From: Desulfobaccales bacterium
Lineage (GTDB): Bacteria > Desulfobacterota > Desulfobaccia > Desulfobaccales > 0-14-0-80-60-11
DNA: 64,000 nucleotides
Reading direction: 5' to 3'
Assembly: GCA_052147455.1 (NCBI GenBank)
Contig: JBKQKO010000017.1
Span: 769 to 64,768, forward strand
Part shown: one piece after another, positions 5,841 through 14,698 of the stretch
Numbering within the stretch: the first letter of the stretch is position 1
Layout of the letters: each line of letters opens with the position of its first letter
Program-made: the position numbers and the translations under genes
The notes under the pieces: model-generated
What the model was told of the DNA's origin: nothing
Database searches by the model: none
The model's input: the letters and a program-made list of their open reading frames with translations, nothing else

Positions 5841-6341
5841 TCAGGCGCCGCCACCCTGGGAAATGATTTCGATAATCTTCTCGCAGGCGGTCACCACCGC
5901 CCCCTGCACGGCCTGAGACAGGCCCGGCGCCACCTCCTGGGGGATGGTTTCGATCTGCGCCACGATGATCTTTACCTGGATACCGCTTTGTTCCTGGAGT
6001 TCCTGCAGCAGGTTCACCGTGGGAAACTGGTGCAGGGAGAAATCGGAAGTCTTGTGCTCCGGAATGCCAGCCACCGGGATCTCGAAGACCTCCCCGGGCC
6101 GACGCTCCGGATATTCCACCGCATCGACGATAATCAGCCTTTCCGGCTTCTTCTCGCTCAAGATGAGGTTAAACAGGATATCCCGGATGCTGGTGCCCAC
6201 GTCCAGGGCCAGGACCTCGTCCGGCAGGGGGTAGTTTTCCTTGAGGTGCTGGATCACCGCCGGGCCGAAGCCGTCATCGCCCCAGAGGATGCTGCCGCAG
6301 CCGAAGATCAGGATGGATTTATCGAAAATTGCCATGGTCAT
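5841..6341 (-). CDS. hydrogenase maturation protease (HycI/FrhD family)
   Basis: GCGSILWGDDGFG, IIVDAV and SLH motifs; directly downstream of the large subunit. Confidence 0.92.
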   Translation of the reverse strand: MTMAIFDKSILIFGCGSILWGDDGFGPAVIQHLKENYPLPDEVLALDVGTSIRDILFNLILSEKKPERLIIVDAVEYPERRPGEVFEIPVAGIPEHKTSDFSLHQFPTVNLLQELQEQSGIQVKIIVAQIETIPQEVAPGLSQAVQGAVVTACEKIIEIISQGGGA

Positions 6342-6526
6342 GTCTTTTAGCTTTCAATGGGCAGATTGCGCGCAGCTGCCGGTGGTCGCCGCAGCAGAGG
6401 GTAAGCCGTCCGCGGCCGGCGCCGGAACCGGGTAATCCCGGCCAAAAGGCGGGGCCACAGGATATGGCTATTATACCCTGTGGCCCCGAAATATCACGCT
6501 GAAAGCGCCTGCTTGATGACTGGCGT

Positions 6527-7969
6527 CTAATTTTTCAGCGTTTCGATTACCTGACCCTGCGCGTCGGTGATGGTGAGTTCCACGGCCAGACCGCCATCCA
6601 GGCGGTGAGTGGCGCAGCTCAGTCACGGGTCATAGGCGCGTATGGCCATTTCCACCCGATTCAGGGAGCCCTGGTCATACTTGCCTTCCTTGATGAAGAG
6701 CTTGGCCGCCTGGTTCACCGACAGATTGATGGCGGCGTTGTTGTGGGTGGTGCCCACGATGAGGTTGACGTTGGTGATGAGGCCCTGTTCGTCGCAGGTA
6801 TAGTCGTGGATCAGGGTGCCCCGGGGAGCCTCCACGCAACCCACGCCCCGGCCGGCCTTGGGGGTAATCGGCACCCGAATATCGGTGCTGGTAATCTCCG
6901 GGTCGTTGAGGAGCTCCACCACGGTCTCGGCGCACTGCAGCAGCTCGATGAGCCGGGCGTAATGGTAGAGCAGGGTGTAGTGGGCCGGGCGGCCGAAGGC
7001 GGCCCGGAACTCCTCCAGTTCCGCCTGGGCCAGGGGGGTGGCCATGCGGTCCACCACGTTGATGCGGGCCAGGCAGTTGGTGCGGTACACCCCGGTGGGG
7101 TTGTCCAGGGAGAGGTTGAGCTTGCCCCACTTCTTGGCGTAGGGGAATTTTTGATAGGACCAGGGCTCCACCCACTCGCCAATGTAGTCGGTGTATTGCT
7201 GGTAGGTGAAGTCGTCATAGGAGCCGTCGGGCCTCATGAGCCGGAGTTTGCCGTCATAGAAGTCGTGGGTGCCGTCCTCCCGCACCGTGCCCAGGTAACC
7301 AACTTCGATGACGCCGATGGTTTTGATGGCATCCATATATTTGGGGAAGACGTTGTCCTTGGCAAACTTCATGGAGAACTTGGAGAACTCCAGGAGCTCA
7401 TTGGCCAGGGGCAGCATCTCCTGCCGCTCGGCCTTAGTCATGGGCTTGCTAACCCCGCCGGGCAGCGAGAAGGTGGGGTGGATGGCCCGACCGGCGAAAT
7501 GCTCCAGCATGGTGGTGGCCTGCTGGCGCATCTTCACCACCTGCCTGGCGATATCCGGCGCGGCCTGGACGATGCCTACCACGTTACGCACCGAATAGTC
7601 GGCGTCCGGACCGATGACGAAGTCCGGCGCCGCCAGGAAATAAAAGTGGAGAATGCGGTCGCCCACGTAAGCGATGTTCTGCATCAGCCGGCGCAGCTTC
7701 ACCGCCGCGGGGGGCGGGGTGACTCCGAAGCAGGCGTCGCCGGCCTTGGAAGAGGCCAGGTGATGGGCCCAGGGACAGATGCCGCAGATATGGCAGACGA
7801 TGCGGGGCATCTCTTCCACCGGGCGGCCCTCGCAAAATTTCTCAAAGCCGCGCAGGGATTGAACGTGGACCTTGGTGTCGGCCACGTTGCCGGCGTCATC
7901 CAGTTGGATGGTCACCTTGGCATGGCCCTCGATTCTGGTGATGGGCTGAATGTTGATCACTTTTCCCAT
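6527..7969 (-). CDS. mvhA: [NiFeSe] hydrogenase large subunit, group 3c (MvhA/VhuA type), Sec at UGA 6623-6625
   Basis: TRIEGH and CGIC at the N-terminus. The ORF track stops at RAYDP; reading through TGA gives RAYDP-U-LSCATH-RLDGGLAVELTITDAQGQVIETLKN* (L2 motif plus cleavable tail, stop TAG 6527-6529). Confidence 0.95.
6585..6613 (-). promoter_or_regulatory. putative bacterial SECIS hairpin of mvhA
   Basis: GCCA-CUC-ACCGCC-[UGGAU]-GGCGGU-C-UGGC; loop begins 23 nt after the UGA. Confidence 0.8.
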
Positions 7970-7980
7970 ATCGTAACCCC

Positions 7981-8925
7981 CTATCTTACCGGCCGGGCCG
8001 GGATTACCGTCAGGTATCCATGACCGCCGATATAGCGGTTCATCATGGCCCGCCGGTCCATCAAGGTCTTGGGATCAAGACCCACCGAGGTGAGGGCGCC
8101 CATCATATCCACCATGGGCCTGGCCCCCTTGCGGATGGGGCCGAAGCAGCCCCGGCACGGGGTCCGGGCCTGAATGCACCGGGGCACCCCGGTCTTGCCG
8201 GCGCATCCTGCCAGGGTAACGGGACCCATGCAGAGATAACCCTGCTCGTTGATGCAGCGCATCTTCTCCAGGCCTTCTTCCGGGTTGAATTCCATGTTCT
8301 GCAGCCAGCGCTTGACCGGGCCGCCGCCGGACTTCTGTTCCCGGATCACCGGGCAGGTGTCGCAGACGCTGCGCTCCGGCAGGCTCCAGGAGGTCTTGCC
8401 GGCCAGCAAGGCCAGGATGGCGTCGGCGATCCAATCCGGGTGCGGCGGGCAGCCGGGAATGGAGATGTCCACCTTGGTCACTTCGTCCAGGGCCTGGCAG
8501 GTGGCAGTCCATTTGGGGACATCGGGATCCTCCGGATCGGCCGCCGGTTCCGTGGAGGCGCAGTGACGGAAGACCTTGTCGAAGACCTCGGCATCCTTGT
8601 ACATGTTGGCCTGGGCCGGGACGCCGCCGTAGCAGGCGCAACTGCCCAGGGAGATGAGAAACTTGACCTTCTTTCGCATTTCATCAAGAACGTGCCGGTT
8701 TTCGGCGTTGCGCACCCCCCCGGAGACGATGCCCACTACCGCTTCGGGGATTTCCAGACTCGTGCCATCTCCGAGCTGCCCGAAGTATTTGTGGTCAACT
8801 AATGCGGGGATGTGAACAAAATTAAGGTGGCCTAATAAATCCAACAGCGCCTCTCCGGTGTTGAGAATGGAAATCTCGCAACCGGAGCAGGCATTCAACC
8901 ACTCCGACGCTACATTTACCGCCAT
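7981..8925 (-). CDS. mvhG: F420-non-reducing hydrogenase small Fe-S subunit
   Basis: ACSGCEIS, GSCACYGGVP, PGCPPHP, CMGPVTLAGC, PCRGCFGP. Confidence 0.93.
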   Translation of the reverse strand: MAVNVASEWLNACSGCEISILNTGEALLDLLGHLNFVHIPALVDHKYFGQLGDGTSLEIPEAVVGIVSGGVRNAENRHVLDEMRKKVKFLISLGSCACYGGVPAQANMYKDAEVFDKVFRHCASTEPAADPEDPDVPKWTATCQALDEVTKVDISIPGCPPHPDWIADAILALLAGKTSWSLPERSVCDTCPVIREQKSGGGPVKRWLQNMEFNPEEGLEKMRCINEQGYLCMGPVTLAGCAGKTGVPRCIQARTPCRGCFGPIRKGARPMVDMMGALTSVGLDPKTLMDRRAMMNRYIGGHGYLTVIPARPVR

Positions 8926-9008
8926 CTCTTCTCCTCCTTGGTTAAGACTCGGCAGTCAGCGGTTTCCTTGCCAATAGGACTTGCTGCTGGCGAGCTGGCC
9001 CCTTGCCG

Positions 9009-9206
9009 CTATGCCGCCGGCTGTGCCCCCGCCGGCCGGCGGGAATAGATGAAATACCCGCCTTCTTCCTCAAACATTTGCACCTCGAATCCATCTTTGG
9101 CATAGCCTTCCATGACTTGCCGGGCCTCCTCGGGGCTGCGGTAATTGCCGCCGTCCCACATGAATTTCTTGCCTTCGAATTTTTTTGCCAGTGGTATGGT
9201 CATCAT
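9009..9206 (-). CDS. small hypothetical protein within the hydrogenase operon
   Basis: 65-aa ORF co-oriented between mvhD and mvhG, with plausible composition. Confidence 0.7.
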   Translation of the reverse strand: MMTIPLAKKFEGKKFMWDGGNYRSPEEARQVMEGYAKDGFEVQMFEEEGGYFIYSRRPAGAQPAA

Positions 9207-9354
9207 CCTGCCTAGATCTGTTTGGTTGCCGCAGGCTTTAGCCTGCGTTACATTTTCCCACCTACATGATGCCGATGAGAATACCTTCCAGTTCGTACCC
9301 GATTGAACCTAAAGAATTAAAAGCATAAAGGCGCCCCGACGGGTCGCCCCCAGG

Positions 9355-9774
9355 TTATCCTCTCGTGCTATACGGGCCGGGGCCCAGGGCCCGCAGGGTC
9401 TCCGTCATCTCCGTCATCACGTCCGCGAACTTCTGGGCTTCCGCCGAGGCAATCCACTCGAGCCGGAACCGCTCGGGCTCCAGGCCGAAGTCCTCCAGCA
9501 TCATCTCAATTCCTTCCGCTCTGGTTTGGGCTTTTTTATTACCTTCCAGGTAATGACATTCGCCCAGGTGTCACCCACATACCAGGACGCCATCGGCCCC
9601 CTTGGTGAGGGCGTTGATGACCAGGTTGGGGTGCACCATGCCGGAGCACATCACCCGGATGATCCGGCCGTTGGGGGGGTACTGGATGCGGGAGACCCCC
9701 GCCAGGTCCGCCCCGGCGTAAGAGCACCAGTTGCAGCAGAAGGCGATGATTAAAGGCTCGAACTGGTCTTCCAT
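9355..9774 (-). CDS. mvhD: [2Fe-2S] subunit MvhD/VhuD, Sec at UGA 9571-9573
   Basis: [21 protein letters not shown]; read-through gives [17 protein letters not shown]...[16 protein letters not shown]...GPYSTRG* (stop TAA 9355-9357), a full-length 139-aa protein. Confidence 0.95.
9538..9554 (-). promoter_or_regulatory. putative SECIS hairpin of mvhD
   Basis: AUUACC-[UGGAA]-GGUAAU; same position and nearly the same loop as the mvhA hairpin. Confidence 0.8.
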
Positions 9775-9843
9775 GGCTAAACCCCTATGCTGTCAGCTTT
9801 CAGTAGTAATTTTTTAAAGCAATCTATCTCTCATTGCTCCCGG

Positions 9844-12800
9844 TTAAATCAACCCCAGGGCGGCCTCCACCTGGGCCTCCAACTGCTCCGGAGTGAAGCC
9901 GGCCACGAAAATGCCCTGCTTGGGGCAGGTGGCCATGCAGGAGCCGCAGCCCTTGCACTGCATGGCATTGACCTCCACCGTCTTCTTGACGCCGCCTTCC
10001 TTCATGTATTCGAGGAGGGTAATGGCCTTGAAGGGGCAGGTGTCGACGCAGAAGGCGCAGCCGTCGCAATTCTCGTCGATGGGGTTGGAGATGATGGATT
10101 CCAGCTCCAGGTAATCCCGGGACAGGATGGTATTGGCCCGGGAGGCGCAGGCCAGGGACTCGGCAATGGTTTCCTGGATGGGTTTGGGGTAATGGCACAA
10201 CCCCGCCAGAAAGATGCCCTCGGTAGTGGCATCCACCGGCCTGATCTTGGGGTGGGCCTCGGTGAAGAAGCCCTCGGCATTGAGGGGAACCTTGTAGAGC
10301 TCCGCCAGGGGGGCATTATGGTGAGGGACGATGGCGGTGGCCAGGGTGAGGAGGTCCACCTGGAAGGTAACCGGCATCTGCATAATCTGGTCGGTTACCG
10401 TGATCTTGAGGCGGCCGTCAGCCTCCTCCACCTTGGGGAGATCGGCGAGGACATGGCGGATGAAGACCACCCCCAGTTCCCGGGCCCGGGTGTAGAGGAT
10501 TTCCCGTTCGCCGTAAGTGCGCATATCCCGGTAGAGGATGAAGACCTCCCTCTCCGGGTTCATCACCTTGAGCTTGATGGCGTTTTCCACCGAGTGGGCG
10601 CAGCAGACCTTGTTGCAATAGGGCCGCTCCGGGGTGCGGGAGCCGACGCACTGGATGAAGGCCACCGCCTGGGCCTGCTGGAGCCGGTCGCTGTTCTGGG
10701 CGATTTCCTTATCAAAATCCAGGGAGAGGAGGACGTTGGGGTTCTCTTTATAGAGGTACATCCCTTTTGGGCGAAAGGGCGAGGCGCCGACTGCCAGGGT
10801 GACGATGCCGTGGCGGATTTCCTCGCCGCTGCTCAGGGTGGTGGTGAAGTTACCCACCGCCCCGGAGACGCCGGTGACCATCTCCTCAAAGTGGACCGTG
10901 ATCCGGTCGTTGCCCAGCACCCGCTTGATCATGGCCTCCAGCCGGGTCCTGACCAGGCCGCCCCGCCAGGTGGTATGGAGCTTCAGGGCATTGCCTCCCA
11001 GGAAGCCCTTGCGTTCCACCAGGTGCACCTGGTAGCCCTGGTCGGCCAGGGCCAGGGCCGCGGTCATGCCGCTGACCCCGCCCCCCACCACCAGGGCGGT
11101 GGGGTTGACCCCCACGGTGAGGTACTCCAGGGGCTGAAGCAGCCGGGCCTTGGCCACCGCCATGTTCACCAGGTCCTGGCACTTCTGGGTGGCCAGCCCC
11201 GGCTCGTTCTGGTGGACCCAGGTGCACTGATTACGGATGTTGGCCATCTCGAACAGGTACTTGTTGACGCCGGCGGTTCGCATCATCTCCTGGAAGATGG
11301 GCTGGTGAGTGGTGGGGCTGCAGGCCGCCACCACCACCCGGTTCAGTTGGTGTTCCTGGATCATCTCCGCCATCTGAGCCTGGGAGTCCTGGGAGCAAGT
11401 GAACAGGTTGGCCTGGGCGTACTCCACCTGGGAAAGAGTTTTGGCGTAATCCACGATGGCCGGGACGTCGGCGATTCCGCCGATGTTGAGGCCGCAATTG
11501 CAAACGAATACCCCCACCCTGGCCGGCTCCCCCGCCACCTCTCTTTCCGGGGGGAATTCCTTCTTTCTCATCAGGGTGCCCCGGGCCGCGGCCAGGTGCC
11601 GGGTGGCAGTGGCGGCCGCGGCGCTCCCCTCCATCACCGTCTGAGGGATGTCCTTGGGCCCGGTGAAGGCGCCGCAGGCAAAGATTCCCTCCCGGAAGCT
11701 GGTGGTCGGCGCAAAACAACTGGCCTCCATGAAGTCGTTGGGGCCCAGGGGTACCTCGAGCCGCCGGGCCAGCTCTATGGTGGCCGGGGGCATCACCATG
11801 CCTACCGAGAGGACCACCATGTCGAAGATCTCGTCGACCACAGCGCCGGGCTCGGTGACGTAGCGTATCTCCAGGTCGCCCTTATCATTGGCGGGCTTGA
11901 CGGAATGGACCCGGGAGCGGATCATCCGGGCCCCCTGATCTTTAATCTTGGCGGCGTATTTTTCGAAGTCCTTGCGGGGGGTTCGCATGTCCAGGTAAAA
12001 CAGGGCCATATCCAGGTCCGGGCCGAGGTGCTCCCGGGCCACGATGGCCTGTTTCAGGGCCGCCATGCAGCAGAAATTGGAGCAATAGGGCTTGGCCCCT
12101 TCGCCGAGATTCCGGGAGCCGACGCAATGGATCCAGGCGATCTTTTTAGGCTCGCGGCCGTCGGAGCGCCGGCGCACGTGTCCCTGGAAGGGCCCGCCGG
12201 GGCTCAGGATGCGCTCGAACTCCAGGCTGGTGTGAACATTGGGATACTTGCCGTAGCCATAGAGCGCCATGGCGGTTGGGTCGAAAGGCTTGAAACCGGG
12301 GGCCAGGATGACCGAGCCGACTTCAATCTCCCTGGTTTCGGGCTTCATGCTGTGGTCAACGGCCCCGGCCTGGCAGGCAGTCACACACTGCATACATTCG
12401 GAGCAGACGCCGCAATTGAGGCAGCGCTCCGCCTCCCTTTGGGCCTGTTCCTCGCTGTAGCCCTTGGAGATCTCCTCAAAGGAGCAGCAGCTATATTCCG
12501 GCGGCAGGTTGGCCATCACTTCCCGGGGTTGGCCTTCCTCGTCCTTGGGGACCTCGCTCCAGCGCTTATGGGCCTCCTCGCCCTCGGAGCGGCCCTCCTT
12601 CATATCCAGGCCCTTGAGGTAGCGGTGGATGGACTCGGCGGCCTCGATGCCGCCGCCCACCGCCTCCACCGCAATCCAGGGTCCGGTGTGCACGTCGCCC
12701 GCCGCGAAAACCCCAGGCCGCGAGGTTTCGTAAGTCGTTTGGTCCACTTCGATGGTGCCCCCGCGGGAGAGCTTGACACCGCAGGCCTCCAGGGCGCCTT

Positions 12801-14280
12801 TGGCCGCCTCCTGGCCGATGGCCGGGACGATCATGTCCACGGGGAGTTCGAAGGTCTCGTTAGGGATGGGTACCGGCTTGCGCCGGCCCGAGGCGTCGGG
12901 CTCTCCCAACTCCATCTTCTGGCAGATGAGGCCCGCCACCTTGCCGTCGGCGCCGACCTTGGCCTCCAGGGGGGCGGCCAGATAGATCAGCTTCACGCCC
13001 TCGCACAGGGCCTGTTCCACTTCATGCTCAAAGGCCGGCATCTCTTCCCGGGAACGGCGGTAGACGATGGTCACGTCCACCCCCAGCCGGATGGCGCTGC
13101 AGGCCACGTCGATGGCCACGTTGCCGCCGCCGATGACTGCCAGCTTCTTGCCGATTTCCTGAGATTCGCCCAGGTTCTGGCGCCGCAAAAACTCCACCCC
13201 CTGGACCACGCCAGGAGCATCCTCATGGGCGATTCCCAGAGGCTTGCCCACGTGGCAGCCGATGCCCAAAAATACTGCCTTGTATCCCTGGTCAAACAGA
13301 GAATCCAGGGTGAAGTCCCGGCCCAGGGCGGCGTTGGTCTTCAGCTCCACCCCCAAACCCAGGATGTGATCGATCTCTTTATCCAGGATGGCCTTGGGCA
13401 GGCGGTAGTCGGGGATGCCCACCCGCAGCATGCCGCCGGCCTTGGGGAGAGCCTCGAAGATGGTGGGCCGGTAGCCCTTGAGGGCCAGGTGATAAGCGCA
13501 AGTGAGGCCCGCCGGCCCGGCCCCAACGATGGCGACCTTCTCAGGCTGGGCCTCCACCAGGGGCATCATCACCGCGGAGATTTCCGCCTGGTCGGCGGCG
13601 AAACGCTTCAGCGAACAGATGGCTACCGGTTGGTCCAGTTCAGCCCGGCGGCACTTGGCCTCGCAGGGATGCGGGCAGACCCGCCCCAACACCCCGGGCA
13701 GGGGCAGCCGCTCCATGATGAGCTTCAGGGCCTCCTGATATTTCCCCTGCTTGACCAGCTGCACGTAGCCCTGGACGTTGATCTCCGCCGGACAGGTGAG
13801 GGTGCAGGGGGCCCGGTCCAGCTTGATGATACTGAAAGCCGACGGAATGGCCTGAGGATAGAGGCGATAGGCCGCCTTCTGGTCTGCTAATCCCTGGTTG
13901 AACTGATCCGGTATGGTCACCGGGCAGACAGTGGCGCATTCTCCGCAGCCGGTGCATTTGGCCAGGTCGATGAAGCGGGGCTCGCTTTCCAGGGTGGCTC
14001 GGAGATGGCCCGGCTCCCCGCTGACCTCTTTCAATTCAGTGAGGGTGTGGACCTCGATGTTGCTGTGCCGGCCGACCTCGACCAGCTTGGGGGAGATAAT
14101 TCACATGGCGCAGTCGTTGCTGGGAAAGGTCTTGTCGATCTGGGCCATGGTGCCGCCGATGGCCGAGCCCTTTTCCACCAGGTAGACGTAATAGCCTGAG
14201 TTGGCCAGGTCCAGAGAGGCCTGCATACCGGCGATGCCGCCCCCCACCACCAAAACCGACCCCAAGATTTCTTCGGACAT
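9844..14280 (-). CDS. hdrA: large HdrA-family flavoprotein (HdrL type, with an inserted GltD-like NAD(P)H/FAD module), Sec at UGA 14101-14103
   Basis: True start is ATG 14280: [26 protein letters not shown]...[24 protein letters not shown], in frame with ORF 9844..14034. Contains GAGPAG/GGGNVA GltD motifs, two CVGSR...CC HdrA motifs and several ferredoxin motifs; 1478 aa. Confidence 0.93.
14067..14086 (-). promoter_or_regulatory. putative SECIS hairpin of hdrA
   Basis: GCUGGUCG-[AGGU]-CGGCCGGC (two G-U pairs); loop begins 23 nt after the UGA. Confidence 0.75.
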
Positions 14281-14370
14281 TTTTAAGCCCTCAGATCACA
14301 GCTTGCGAGAGGATTGATGAACATGTTCCTGAATCAGCTCTTTTGTTGAAAACAGCAACAATTCAACAAT

Positions 14371-14386
14371 TGCGATATTTATGCCA
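14371..14386 (-). promoter_or_regulatory. putative sigma54 -24/-12 promoter of the hdr-mvh operon
   Basis: TGGCATAAATATCGCA matches the TGGCAC-N5-TTGCW spacing; AT-rich region upstream. Confidence 0.65.
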
Positions 14387-14698
14387 TAGTACGGGTAATT
14401 TTTTTCGACAATTTATATAGAGTTTAGAGCCTCAAGGGGAATCTCCCCGGGAGTCTTTGGGAGATAATTTCCCCTGGGCGGGGTATTATGCACCAAACAC
14501 CTTTTTGAAGCACTTATGTATGGAGAGAATTTTGCCTGTGTACATATTAGCTTGCCTGGTTAGGTTATGCAAATAATTATTTTATGCAAAAATTTAGCAA
14601 GCGGTGGGCTTCCGGGGCGGGTTAACCCCACCCCCGGGTCAAGACGGCAGGGATAACCTAAGCCAGGGCGCGGGGACCAGACGCCGGGCCCGCGGCCC

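Follow-up and report, generated by a model that had tools for sequence, protein, structure and literature searches.

The window analysed here is a 64,000-nucleotide (nt) stretch of contig JBKQKO010000017.1 from a Desulfobaccales bacterium, with a G+C content of 60%. Homologues of its proteins likewise point to Desulfobaccales, in the phylum Thermodesulfobacteriota. It holds six minus-strand genes in the order hdrL-mvhD-orf65-mvhG-mvhA-protease, which we read as one operon (Table 1). Three of these genes, hdrL, mvhD and mvhA, carry an in-frame TGA codon. We focused on these codons as candidate sites of selenocysteine (Sec, U) insertion and on the hydrogenase-flavoprotein complex that the operon would encode. 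The start codon of hdrL is the ATG at 14280, preceded by GAGGG, and an extra TGA at 14296-14298 belongs to the hdrL leader, outside the coding frame. The hdrL stop is followed after 69 nt by the mvhD start, the gap between mvhD and mvhG is 429 nt, and the protease gene lies 185 nt downstream of mvhA.

Table 1. Genes, predicted Sec codons and candidate hairpins of the operon (window coordinates; aa, amino acids; SECIS, selenocysteine insertion sequence)
Feature	Position	Strand	Description	Basis
hdrL	9844..14280	-	1478-aa HdrA-like flavoprotein	translation, Pfam, NCBIfam, PDB matches
mvhD	9355..9774	-	139 aa, [2Fe-2S] adaptor subunit, FlpD family	PF02662, PDB
orf65	9009..9206	-	conserved 65-aa open reading frame between mvhD and mvhG	conservation, AF2
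mvhG	7981..8925	-	314-aa [NiFe]-hydrogenase small subunit	PF01058, VhuG
mvhA	6527..7969	-	480-aa single-chain [NiFeSe] large subunit, Mvh/Vhu type	VhuA + VhuU, PF00374, PDB
protease	5841..6341	-	166-aa hydrogenase maturation endopeptidase (HycI/FrhD type)	PF01750, TIGR00072
UGA, predicted Sec60 of HdrL	14101..14103	-		translation, gap-free alignment to HdrA residue 197, TGA conservation
UGA, predicted Sec68 of MvhD	9571..9573	-		Cys at aligned site in 8rvu_F and 8rvv_F, TGA conservation
UGA, predicted Sec449 of MvhA	6623..6625	-		translation, TGA conservation
hdrL hairpin	14067..14086	-	SECIS-type	folding, pairing in relatives, UGA-vs-Cys contrast
mvhD hairpin	9538..9554	-	SECIS-type	folding, synonymous entropy, UGA-vs-Cys contrast
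mvhA hairpin	6590..6606	-	SECIS-type	folding, stem invariance, synonymous entropy

Gene products and in-frame TGA codons

The mvhD product matches the FlpD family (PF02662) with 185.1 bits against a cut-off of 22.3, over 123 of 123 model positions and across the UGA, and MvhD chains in the PDB at E 5e-51. U68 aligns with a cysteine in the solved MvhD chains 8rvu_F and 8rvv_F. The score with the archaeal VhuD model NF045873 is below the cut-off (130.5 bits vs 215). MvhG matches PF01058 (105.9 bits) and the NCBIfam VhuG model (182.4 bits) and has no in-frame TGA. The single MvhA chain matches PF00374 and is covered by the VhuA model over residues 1-427 (479.5 bits, below the equivalog cut-off of 800) and by the VhuU model over residues 432-458 (39.1 bits). 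Its closest PDB chains are VhuA/MvhA proteins (9sfi_g, 9sw2_F and 5odc_F; E 1e-125 to 1e-128), and we take this Mvh/Vhu type to be group 3c. The translation contains RIEGH, CGIC and DPULSCATH, consistent with the nickel motifs RxCGxC (N-terminal) and DP(C/U)xxCxxH (C-terminal) of this type, with U449 as the first residue of the C-terminal nickel-binding motif (DP-U-xx-C-xx-H). A tail of 25 residues follows, and the adjoining protease gene matches PF01750 (82.7 bits) and TIGR00072 (122.9 bits, cut-off 47.45). An initial annotation of this DNA had described a Sec nickel ligand in a single-chain large subunit with a cleavable tail and an adjacent protease; the VhuA and VhuU matches in one chain, the tail and the HycI/FrhD-type gene agree with that description.

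The TGA codons stand in the contexts NDCAM-U-IISPK (HdrL residue 60), VCG-U-HLGECHY (MvhD residue 68) and AYDP-U-LSCATH (MvhA residue 449), and in each case the frame remains open to full length. The same annotation had placed them at cysteine positions of homologues, with full-length frames beyond them and with truncation of all three genes by standard open reading frame (ORF) calling. These claims held: translation gives proteins of 1478, 139 and 480 aa, the recommended alignment to cysteine homologues finds Cys at the three sites, and ORFs under the standard code yield 59 plus 1396 aa for hdrL, 67 aa for mvhD and 448 aa for mvhA. This is also an annotation issue, as the genome itself and many public relatives miscall the genes (1396 vs 1478, 67 vs 139 and 448 vs 480 aa); the public protein for this contig, P0004, is the 1396-aa HdrL fragment. 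Because all three genes are called as fragments, metabolic reconstructions of soil or peat Desulfobaccales may miss or mis-score an H2-metabolising complex.

We searched 40 related genomes and the own genome with MvhA, obtained a match in 31 of the 41, and mapped the codon at each site in 28 fetched loci. Among the copies from genomes of the same genus, family and order, 16 of 17 have TGA at the HdrL site; the corresponding figures are 25 of 26 for MvhD and 27 of 29 for MvhA. The mapped copies include a second operon type at only 55-65% identity. Cysteine forms were found in two of the mapped loci only. In L069, a locus from another family, the HdrL site reads TGC and the MvhD and MvhA sites both read TGT, and L068 is a lone mvhGA pair with TGC whose host genome also carries the Sec operon. 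That host, a member of the same genus, contains two tandem copies of the whole operon, about 10.4 kb apart (L042, G008:C22:351400-371300), and the Cys-type L068 is its third mvhGA pair, located elsewhere. For the N-terminal half of HdrL, 80 of 120 database homologues have cysteine in the motif, and at least nine others start just past the Sec site, as expected of truncated calls of Sec forms. In an even sample of 300 genomes across the phylum, an MvhA-like gene was found in 105 of 301 genomes. An in-frame TGA is present in 28 of the 33 rows that have at least 55% identity and reach the site, the exact TGA position being confirmed for the fetched rows only; more distant rows contain it in only four cases. 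Roughly one tenth of the 300-genome sample thus has a TGA-type MvhA.

The three TGAs could instead be real stops, as in pseudogenes, split genes, assembly errors or genome-wide reassignment of TGA. Gene callers do split the three genes, P0004 being one example. Against this, the same TGA recurs in dozens of independent assemblies, with downstream frames open and protein sequence conserved, and over 6590-9749 and 12239-14093 the contigs of another sample of the same study have the identical sequence. A truncated MvhA would lack its nickel ligands. TGA terminates 19 of the window's 55 ORFs, and the code is therefore standard, with no reassignment of TGA. The genome also has a dedicated tRNA-Sec and SelB. 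The genes selA, selB, selC and selD, which the initial annotation had suggested looking for, all score above curated cut-offs: selA 602.9 bits, selB 349.7 bits, selD 371.9 bits and tRNA-Sec 75.7 bits, the last also called by ARAGORN as tRNA-SeC with anticodon tca. The selD gene, on contig C118, has an in-frame TGA of its own, of Sec type. We therefore regard real stops as extremely improbable. None of the X3 contigs among those listed spans 14101-14103. Contigs from RNA libraries of relatives (X18 and X20) overlap all three Sec sites, and 0 of their 40 listed differences falls on a TGA codon. As there are 748 further differences and DNA can occur in RNA libraries, these contigs are evidence neither of expression nor of the codon.

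Hairpins downstream of the UGA codons

Counting the U of UGA as nt 1, the loop of a hairpin starts at nt 26 in hdrL, mvhD and mvhA alike, which leaves the 22 nt between UGA and loop that had been noted for all three. The hdrL hairpin, GCUGGUCG-AGGU-CGGCCGGC, has an 8-bp stem and the loop AGGU. The mvhD hairpin is AUUACC-UGGAA-GGUAAU and the mvhA hairpin ACCGCC-UGGAU-GGCGGU, and the two do share the CC-UGGA(A/U)-GG first noticed in the initial annotation. The codons of the mvhA hairpin read H-R-L-D-G-G; they encode the cleavage site and the first part of the 25-residue tail. Bacterial SECIS elements, in the bSECISearch model, are stem-loops just 3' of the UGA with a G in the apical loop at a set distance; archaeal ones sit in untranslated regions. 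The AGGU, UGGAA and UGGAU loops at nt 26 fit the bacterial pattern.

Synonymous variation was measured as codon entropy over the 11 codons after UGA. In mvhD the value is 0.148 vs a mean of 0.788 and is the lowest of 99 codon windows; in mvhA it is 0.359 (gene mean 0.793), and 6 of 343 windows reach a value this low. The hdrL hairpin is paired in 98.2% of cells in 14 sequences, where three pairs vary by wobble only, and five of the six mvhA pairs are invariant in 22 sequences. A double change in the stems, UA instead of CG, occurs in two distinct HdrA sequences. Since the stems hardly vary, covariation is uninformative, and we relied on synonymous-site suppression and on the comparison of UGA with Cys forms. 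For the latter, a hairpin was defined as at least 5 bp with a loop start at nt 20-30 and was sought in distinct sequences after 80 more loci of the phylum had been added; these sequences are mutually related, and the contrast is descriptive rather than a formal test. The mvhD hairpin is present in 67 of 67 UGA forms vs 6 of 37 Cys forms, and the hdrA hairpin in 38 of 39 vs 11 of 29.

Several results weigh against SECIS-directed decoding. Single-sequence fold energies are unremarkable, with z values of -1.15, -1.41 and -2.00 for hdrL, mvhD and mvhA, and 26, 22 and 10 of 200 shuffles fold as well. Rfam gave no SECIS or other credible RNA family over the whole window at gathering thresholds, and no SECIS over 6400-14400 at E<=10, where the six weak matches are miRNA/sRNA models. 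Synonymous suppression in hdrL is weak to moderate (22 of 70 windows as low). The covariation tests found no informative compensatory change, the stems being near-invariant or varying by wobble only.

Near-invariant stems with almost no compensatory change, weak fold z-scores and the lack of an Rfam SECIS match could mean that the hairpins are by-products of a conserved amino-acid sequence and that read-through depends on something else. Cys forms speak against this: with different codons for identical or similar residues, most of them have no hairpin, in the proportions given above. L069, for example, keeps HYLEGN in other codons and has no stem. Moreover, synonymous sites are frozen only directly after the UGA, and five other Sec sites of the genome have similar hairpins with the loop at nt 22-24. 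We consider hairpins of this accidental kind very unlikely. TGA is conserved in relatives and the hairpin tracks the UGA state, so the pattern exceeds chance. Thus the operon most probably (about 0.9) encodes a cytoplasmic Mvh-type [NiFeSe] hydrogenase and an HdrA-like flavoprotein in which the three UGA codons are decoded as Sec via hairpins in the coding sequence. SelB and tRNA-Sec would decode the three codons, each directed by the hairpin whose apical loop lies 22 nt past its UGA.

The genome has at least eight Sec sites: the three of this operon and those of two MvhD paralogues, selD and two formate dehydrogenase (Fdh) genes. The identical spacing holds within the operon but is not a rule of the organism, and 22 nt as a fixed genome-wide SECIS spacing was ruled out, as the loops of the five other sites are 2-4 nt nearer the UGA. 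Four of the eight elements have CC-UGG-N-(A/U)-GG in common, and its codon phase (x-Leu-x-Gly) is the same in each. The MvhD paralogues (G000:C52:36192-36608 and G000:C9:25734-26129) both have Sec at FCC-R/H-Y-U, residue 17 in MvhD numbering, and cysteine at the equivalent of site 68. The first follows a Cys-type HdrL (C52:31746-36164, 51% identity) and the second a Cys-type HdrA. The hairpin of the paralogues, CGGACC-UGGCA-GGUUCG, has its loop one codon nearer the UGA. The formate dehydrogenase alpha genes (G000:C75:49150-52185 and G000:C71:8462-9196) contain an in-frame TGA (RL-U-HSS), and both of their hairpins have the loop at nt 22-24.

We also compared 72 adjacent hdrA-mvhD pairs, writing the states of HdrA site 60, MvhD site 17 and MvhD site 68 in that order. 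The counts are U,C,U 40; C,C,C 16; C,C,U 10; U,C,C 4; and C,U,C 2, from loci that were partly selected by TGA and from relatives that are non-independent. The Sec states of HdrA and MvhD tend to go together, which we treat as a lead only. The idea that the Sec/Cys state of the partner HdrA sets the Sec position in MvhD was rejected as a rule, 14 of the 72 pairs being discordant.

Architecture of HdrL and proposed electron flow

The HdrA core of HdrL consists of residues 1-151 and about 616-905 and lacks the archaeal N-terminal domain. It is split by a GltD/NfnB-like NAD(P)H/FAD (flavin adenine dinucleotide) module at about 152-634 that has two [4Fe-4S] clusters; the PDB chains matched by residues 155-634 are those of NfnA, GltD and dihydropyrimidine dehydrogenase (DPD). 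The region of about 913-1478 matches a whole HdrA including its N-terminal domain and ends in a 2x[4Fe-4S] ferredoxin domain; this second HdrA-like module is without the Cys pair. Family matches include Pyr_redox_2 (185 bits) and Fer4_20 (69.7 bits) in Pfam and HdrA2 (885.8 bits in four stretches) and PRK12771 (561.8 bits) in NCBIfam, and HdrA chains in the PDB are matched at E 6e-172. The protein fits the definition of HdrL, namely an HdrA FAD domain with CxxC/U and an NAD(P)H module like the glutamate synthase small subunit, followed by mvhD. As judged from these matches, HdrL would work like HdrA, yet it is not classed as a heterodisulfide reductase. Several relatives have more than 5.4 kb between the N-terminal part of HdrL and the mvhD gene downstream of it, which implies a larger HdrL insert than here.

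HdrL residues 8-149 align without gaps with 9sfi_A 145-286, and residues 9-149 with 5odc_A 146-286, so U60 corresponds to HdrA position 197. The Sec motif C57-x-x-U60 is placed beside the FAD. In M. maripaludis HdrA, Sec197 pairs with a cysteine between cluster A3 and the bifurcating FAD, and the available text calls the role of this pair unresolved (PMC13518236). A comparable pair is described for BamE of the G. metallireducens class II benzoyl-CoA reductase (bioRxiv 10.64898/2026.04.10.717634), an HdrA-like protein with two flavins whose Cys59-Cys62 at the bifurcating FAD has the same place and nearly the same numbering as C57/U60. BamF is, like MvhD here, an MvhD-like adaptor with a Sec; in that text the Sec is residue 19, near the [2Fe-2S] cluster, and matches the U17 type of the genome's two MvhD paralogues, not U68. 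Bam, as described there, has no hydrogenase, unlike this operon.

We propose that MvhAG would oxidise H2 at a Ni-Fe site with U449 as selenolate ligand. Electrons would pass from the MvhG clusters to the [2Fe-2S] cluster of MvhD and from there to FAD in the first HdrA module; the C57/U60 pair of HdrL at that site may act as a thiol-selenol relay. NAD(P)+ is the probable high-potential acceptor and ferredoxin, reached through the C-terminal ferredoxin domain of HdrL, the probable low-potential one; we propose these acceptors because no hdrBC lies nearby and HdrL has the GltD/NfnB-like NAD(P) module. The reverse direction, H2 formation from NAD(P)H and reduced ferredoxin, would also be possible. 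After metal insertion, the protease is predicted to cleave MvhA behind His455 and so remove the tail.

The simplest reading of these predictions, an H2:NAD(P)+/ferredoxin bifurcating or confurcating enzyme, is one to which we give somewhat less than even odds. More specifically, and still more tentatively, HdrL-MvhDGA, perhaps with the 65-aa protein as a subunit, might be an HdrBC-free HdrA-type bifurcating [NiFeSe] hydrogenase that passes electrons from H2 to NAD(P)+ and ferredoxin through a selenol relay of Cys57/Sec60 and MvhD Sec68. Such an enzyme is absent from the table of bifurcating enzymes in a 2018 review (PMC5861303), and we found no biochemical characterisation of one in the literature searched. 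Two points weigh against the proposed activity. HdrL scores below the cut-offs of the CoB-CoM HdrA models NF040770, NF041778 and NF041891 (885.8/1100, 626.4/1400 and 635.4/1300 bits). NADH oxidation and DsrC reduction have been proposed for HdrL-type proteins and are given as unproven in the available text of PMC2702500 and PMC5947623.

These proposals point to a different acceptor, either a thiol/disulfide such as DsrC or a partner resembling HdrBC that is encoded elsewhere. Sec decoding would be the same, and the GltD-like module would be a second electron input that oxidises NAD(P)H. As far as the accessible text goes, HdrL was proposed to link NADH to sulfite/DsrC in Db. autotrophicum (PMC2702500), and HdrABC/HdrL were tied to DsrC in S. 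fumaroxidans (PMC5947623). The own genome contains further HdrA/HdrL paralogues, on contigs C52, C9, C128 and C90. However, hdrB, hdrC and dsrC are all missing among the genes neighbouring the operon, and relatives keep the operon layout likewise without them. We regard such an acceptor as possible but doubtful.

Related systems and minor features of the locus

The initial annotation gave as known Sec forms of HdrA, VhuD and VhuU in methanococci and some deltaproteobacteria, and the literature agrees (PMC13518236, PMC2702500, PMC13188914). It had also called the operon hidden. That is correct in that the genes are miscalled, but the find is not novel: Sec-HdrL, Sec-MvhD and Sec-MvhA in bacteria were published in 2009, and a three-selenoprotein operon serves as a review example. 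Strittmatter et al. 2009 (PMC2702500) described Sec-HdrL1 and Sec-HdrL3 of Db. autotrophicum, HdrL being a fusion of heterodisulfide reductase and glutamate synthase with an NADH site that is always followed by mvhD. They also reported four Sec-MvhD proteins and a cytoplasmic Sec hydrogenase, MvhA2DG, clustered with Sec-HdrA1. Db. autotrophicum HRM2 thus resembles this locus in having Sec-HdrL, Sec-MvhD, a cytoplasmic Sec MvhADG and complete sel machinery. It differs in that, according to the part of the paper available, MvhA2DG is clustered with HdrA1 and apparently not with HdrL, whereas in this locus HdrL, MvhDGA and the protease are directly linked in a single operon that also contains the 65-aa ORF. 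The lineage is also another one, Desulfobaccales from soil or peat.

A 2026 review (PMC13188914) lists, in its available part, MvhA/VhuU (UxxC), MvhD/VhuD and HdrA (CxxU) as verified selenoprotein families and gives frhA-frhD-hdrA as a typical selenoprotein operon of archaea and Deltaproteobacteria. Like this locus, that operon has three Sec genes, for a hydrogenase large subunit (UxxC), a member of the FlpD/MvhD family and HdrA (CxxU). The deltaproteobacterial form described there has a fourth, GlpC-like Sec gene, which is not present in this operon, and the HdrA here is the long HdrL form. The Hdr-Vhu complex of M. maripaludis (PMC13518236, Nature 2026; PDB 9sfi) is alike in that HdrA Sec197 equals HdrL U60, VhuD and MvhD are one family and the large subunit has a Sec nickel ligand. 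In that account the large subunit is split into VhuA and VhuU, while MvhA here is a single chain, and the complex has HdrBC and reduces CoM-S-S-CoB, while no hdrBC lies beside this operon. Archaeal VhuD has two Sec residues according to the review table (PMC13188914), and MvhD here has one. The periplasmic [NiFeSe] hydrogenases of Desulfovibrio and Desulfomicrobium (PDB 5jsu, 2wpn and 1cc1) share with MvhA the single chain and the Sec in the C-terminal nickel motif. They are distant from it (E about 1e-29 to 1e-33, with the match mainly in the N-terminal 220 residues) and belong to periplasmic group 1, whereas MvhA here is of the cytoplasmic Mvh type.

Partial texts further report Sec forms of HdrA, MvhD and BamE in D. 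multivorans (PMC5109826) and clusters of HdrL and Mvh with FAD/NAD subunits in S. fumaroxidans (PMC5947623). A literature search found no paper combining Desulfobacca, selenocysteine and heterodisulfide. In view of the texts available, this kind of operon is already well described, and what is particular here may be the direct linkage of hdrL, mvhDGA and protease, the 65-aa ORF and the lineage. For the field this is an ordinary find, and its value lies mainly in annotation. It adds a well-supported case to the established picture that Sec-containing Mvh/Hdr proteins are common in Thermodesulfobacteriota, and the natural Sec and Cys variants tabulated are potential study material.

Of the 28 relatives' loci, 20 have the 65-aa ORF at the same place, with 45-94% identity and with W17-D18-G19 and R56-R57 invariant. 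The ORF matches no Pfam or NCBIfam family and has no Atlas annotation. AF2 predicts a beta-beta-alpha-beta-beta fold (pLDDT 85.8), which had no PDB fold match at E<=0.001; the best weak likeness is to a SPOR-like peptidoglycan-binding domain (TMq 0.57, E 0.5). The protein may be a subunit of the HdrL-Mvh complex that has gone unrecognised, or a factor in its assembly. One locus of the second operon type (L063:5352-6470; about 60% identity, with a short HdrA without the GltD insert) has a 372-aa gene in the mvhD-mvhG gap instead of the 65-aa ORF. That gene has two CxxCxxC-type motifs and is FrhB/FdhB-like by eye only.

The flanks of the operon are unrelated, with argH downstream and DUF2284, a CMD-family gene, purC and a Ser/Thr kinase upstream. 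The mvhD stop is directly followed by a G+C-rich hairpin and then a T-rich run (about 9318-9350, minus strand), and a second hairpin, CGCAGGC-UAAA-GCCUGCG, lies at 9230-9247 ahead of the 65-aa ORF. The two may be an attenuator or processing site that sets the ratio of HdrL/MvhD to the hydrogenase subunits. A strong hairpin, GGGGCCACAGGG ... CCUGUGGCCCC, is located at 6451-6487 (minus strand), about 40 nt past the mvhA stop and before the protease gene, where it overlaps a promoter-like match at 6497-6470.

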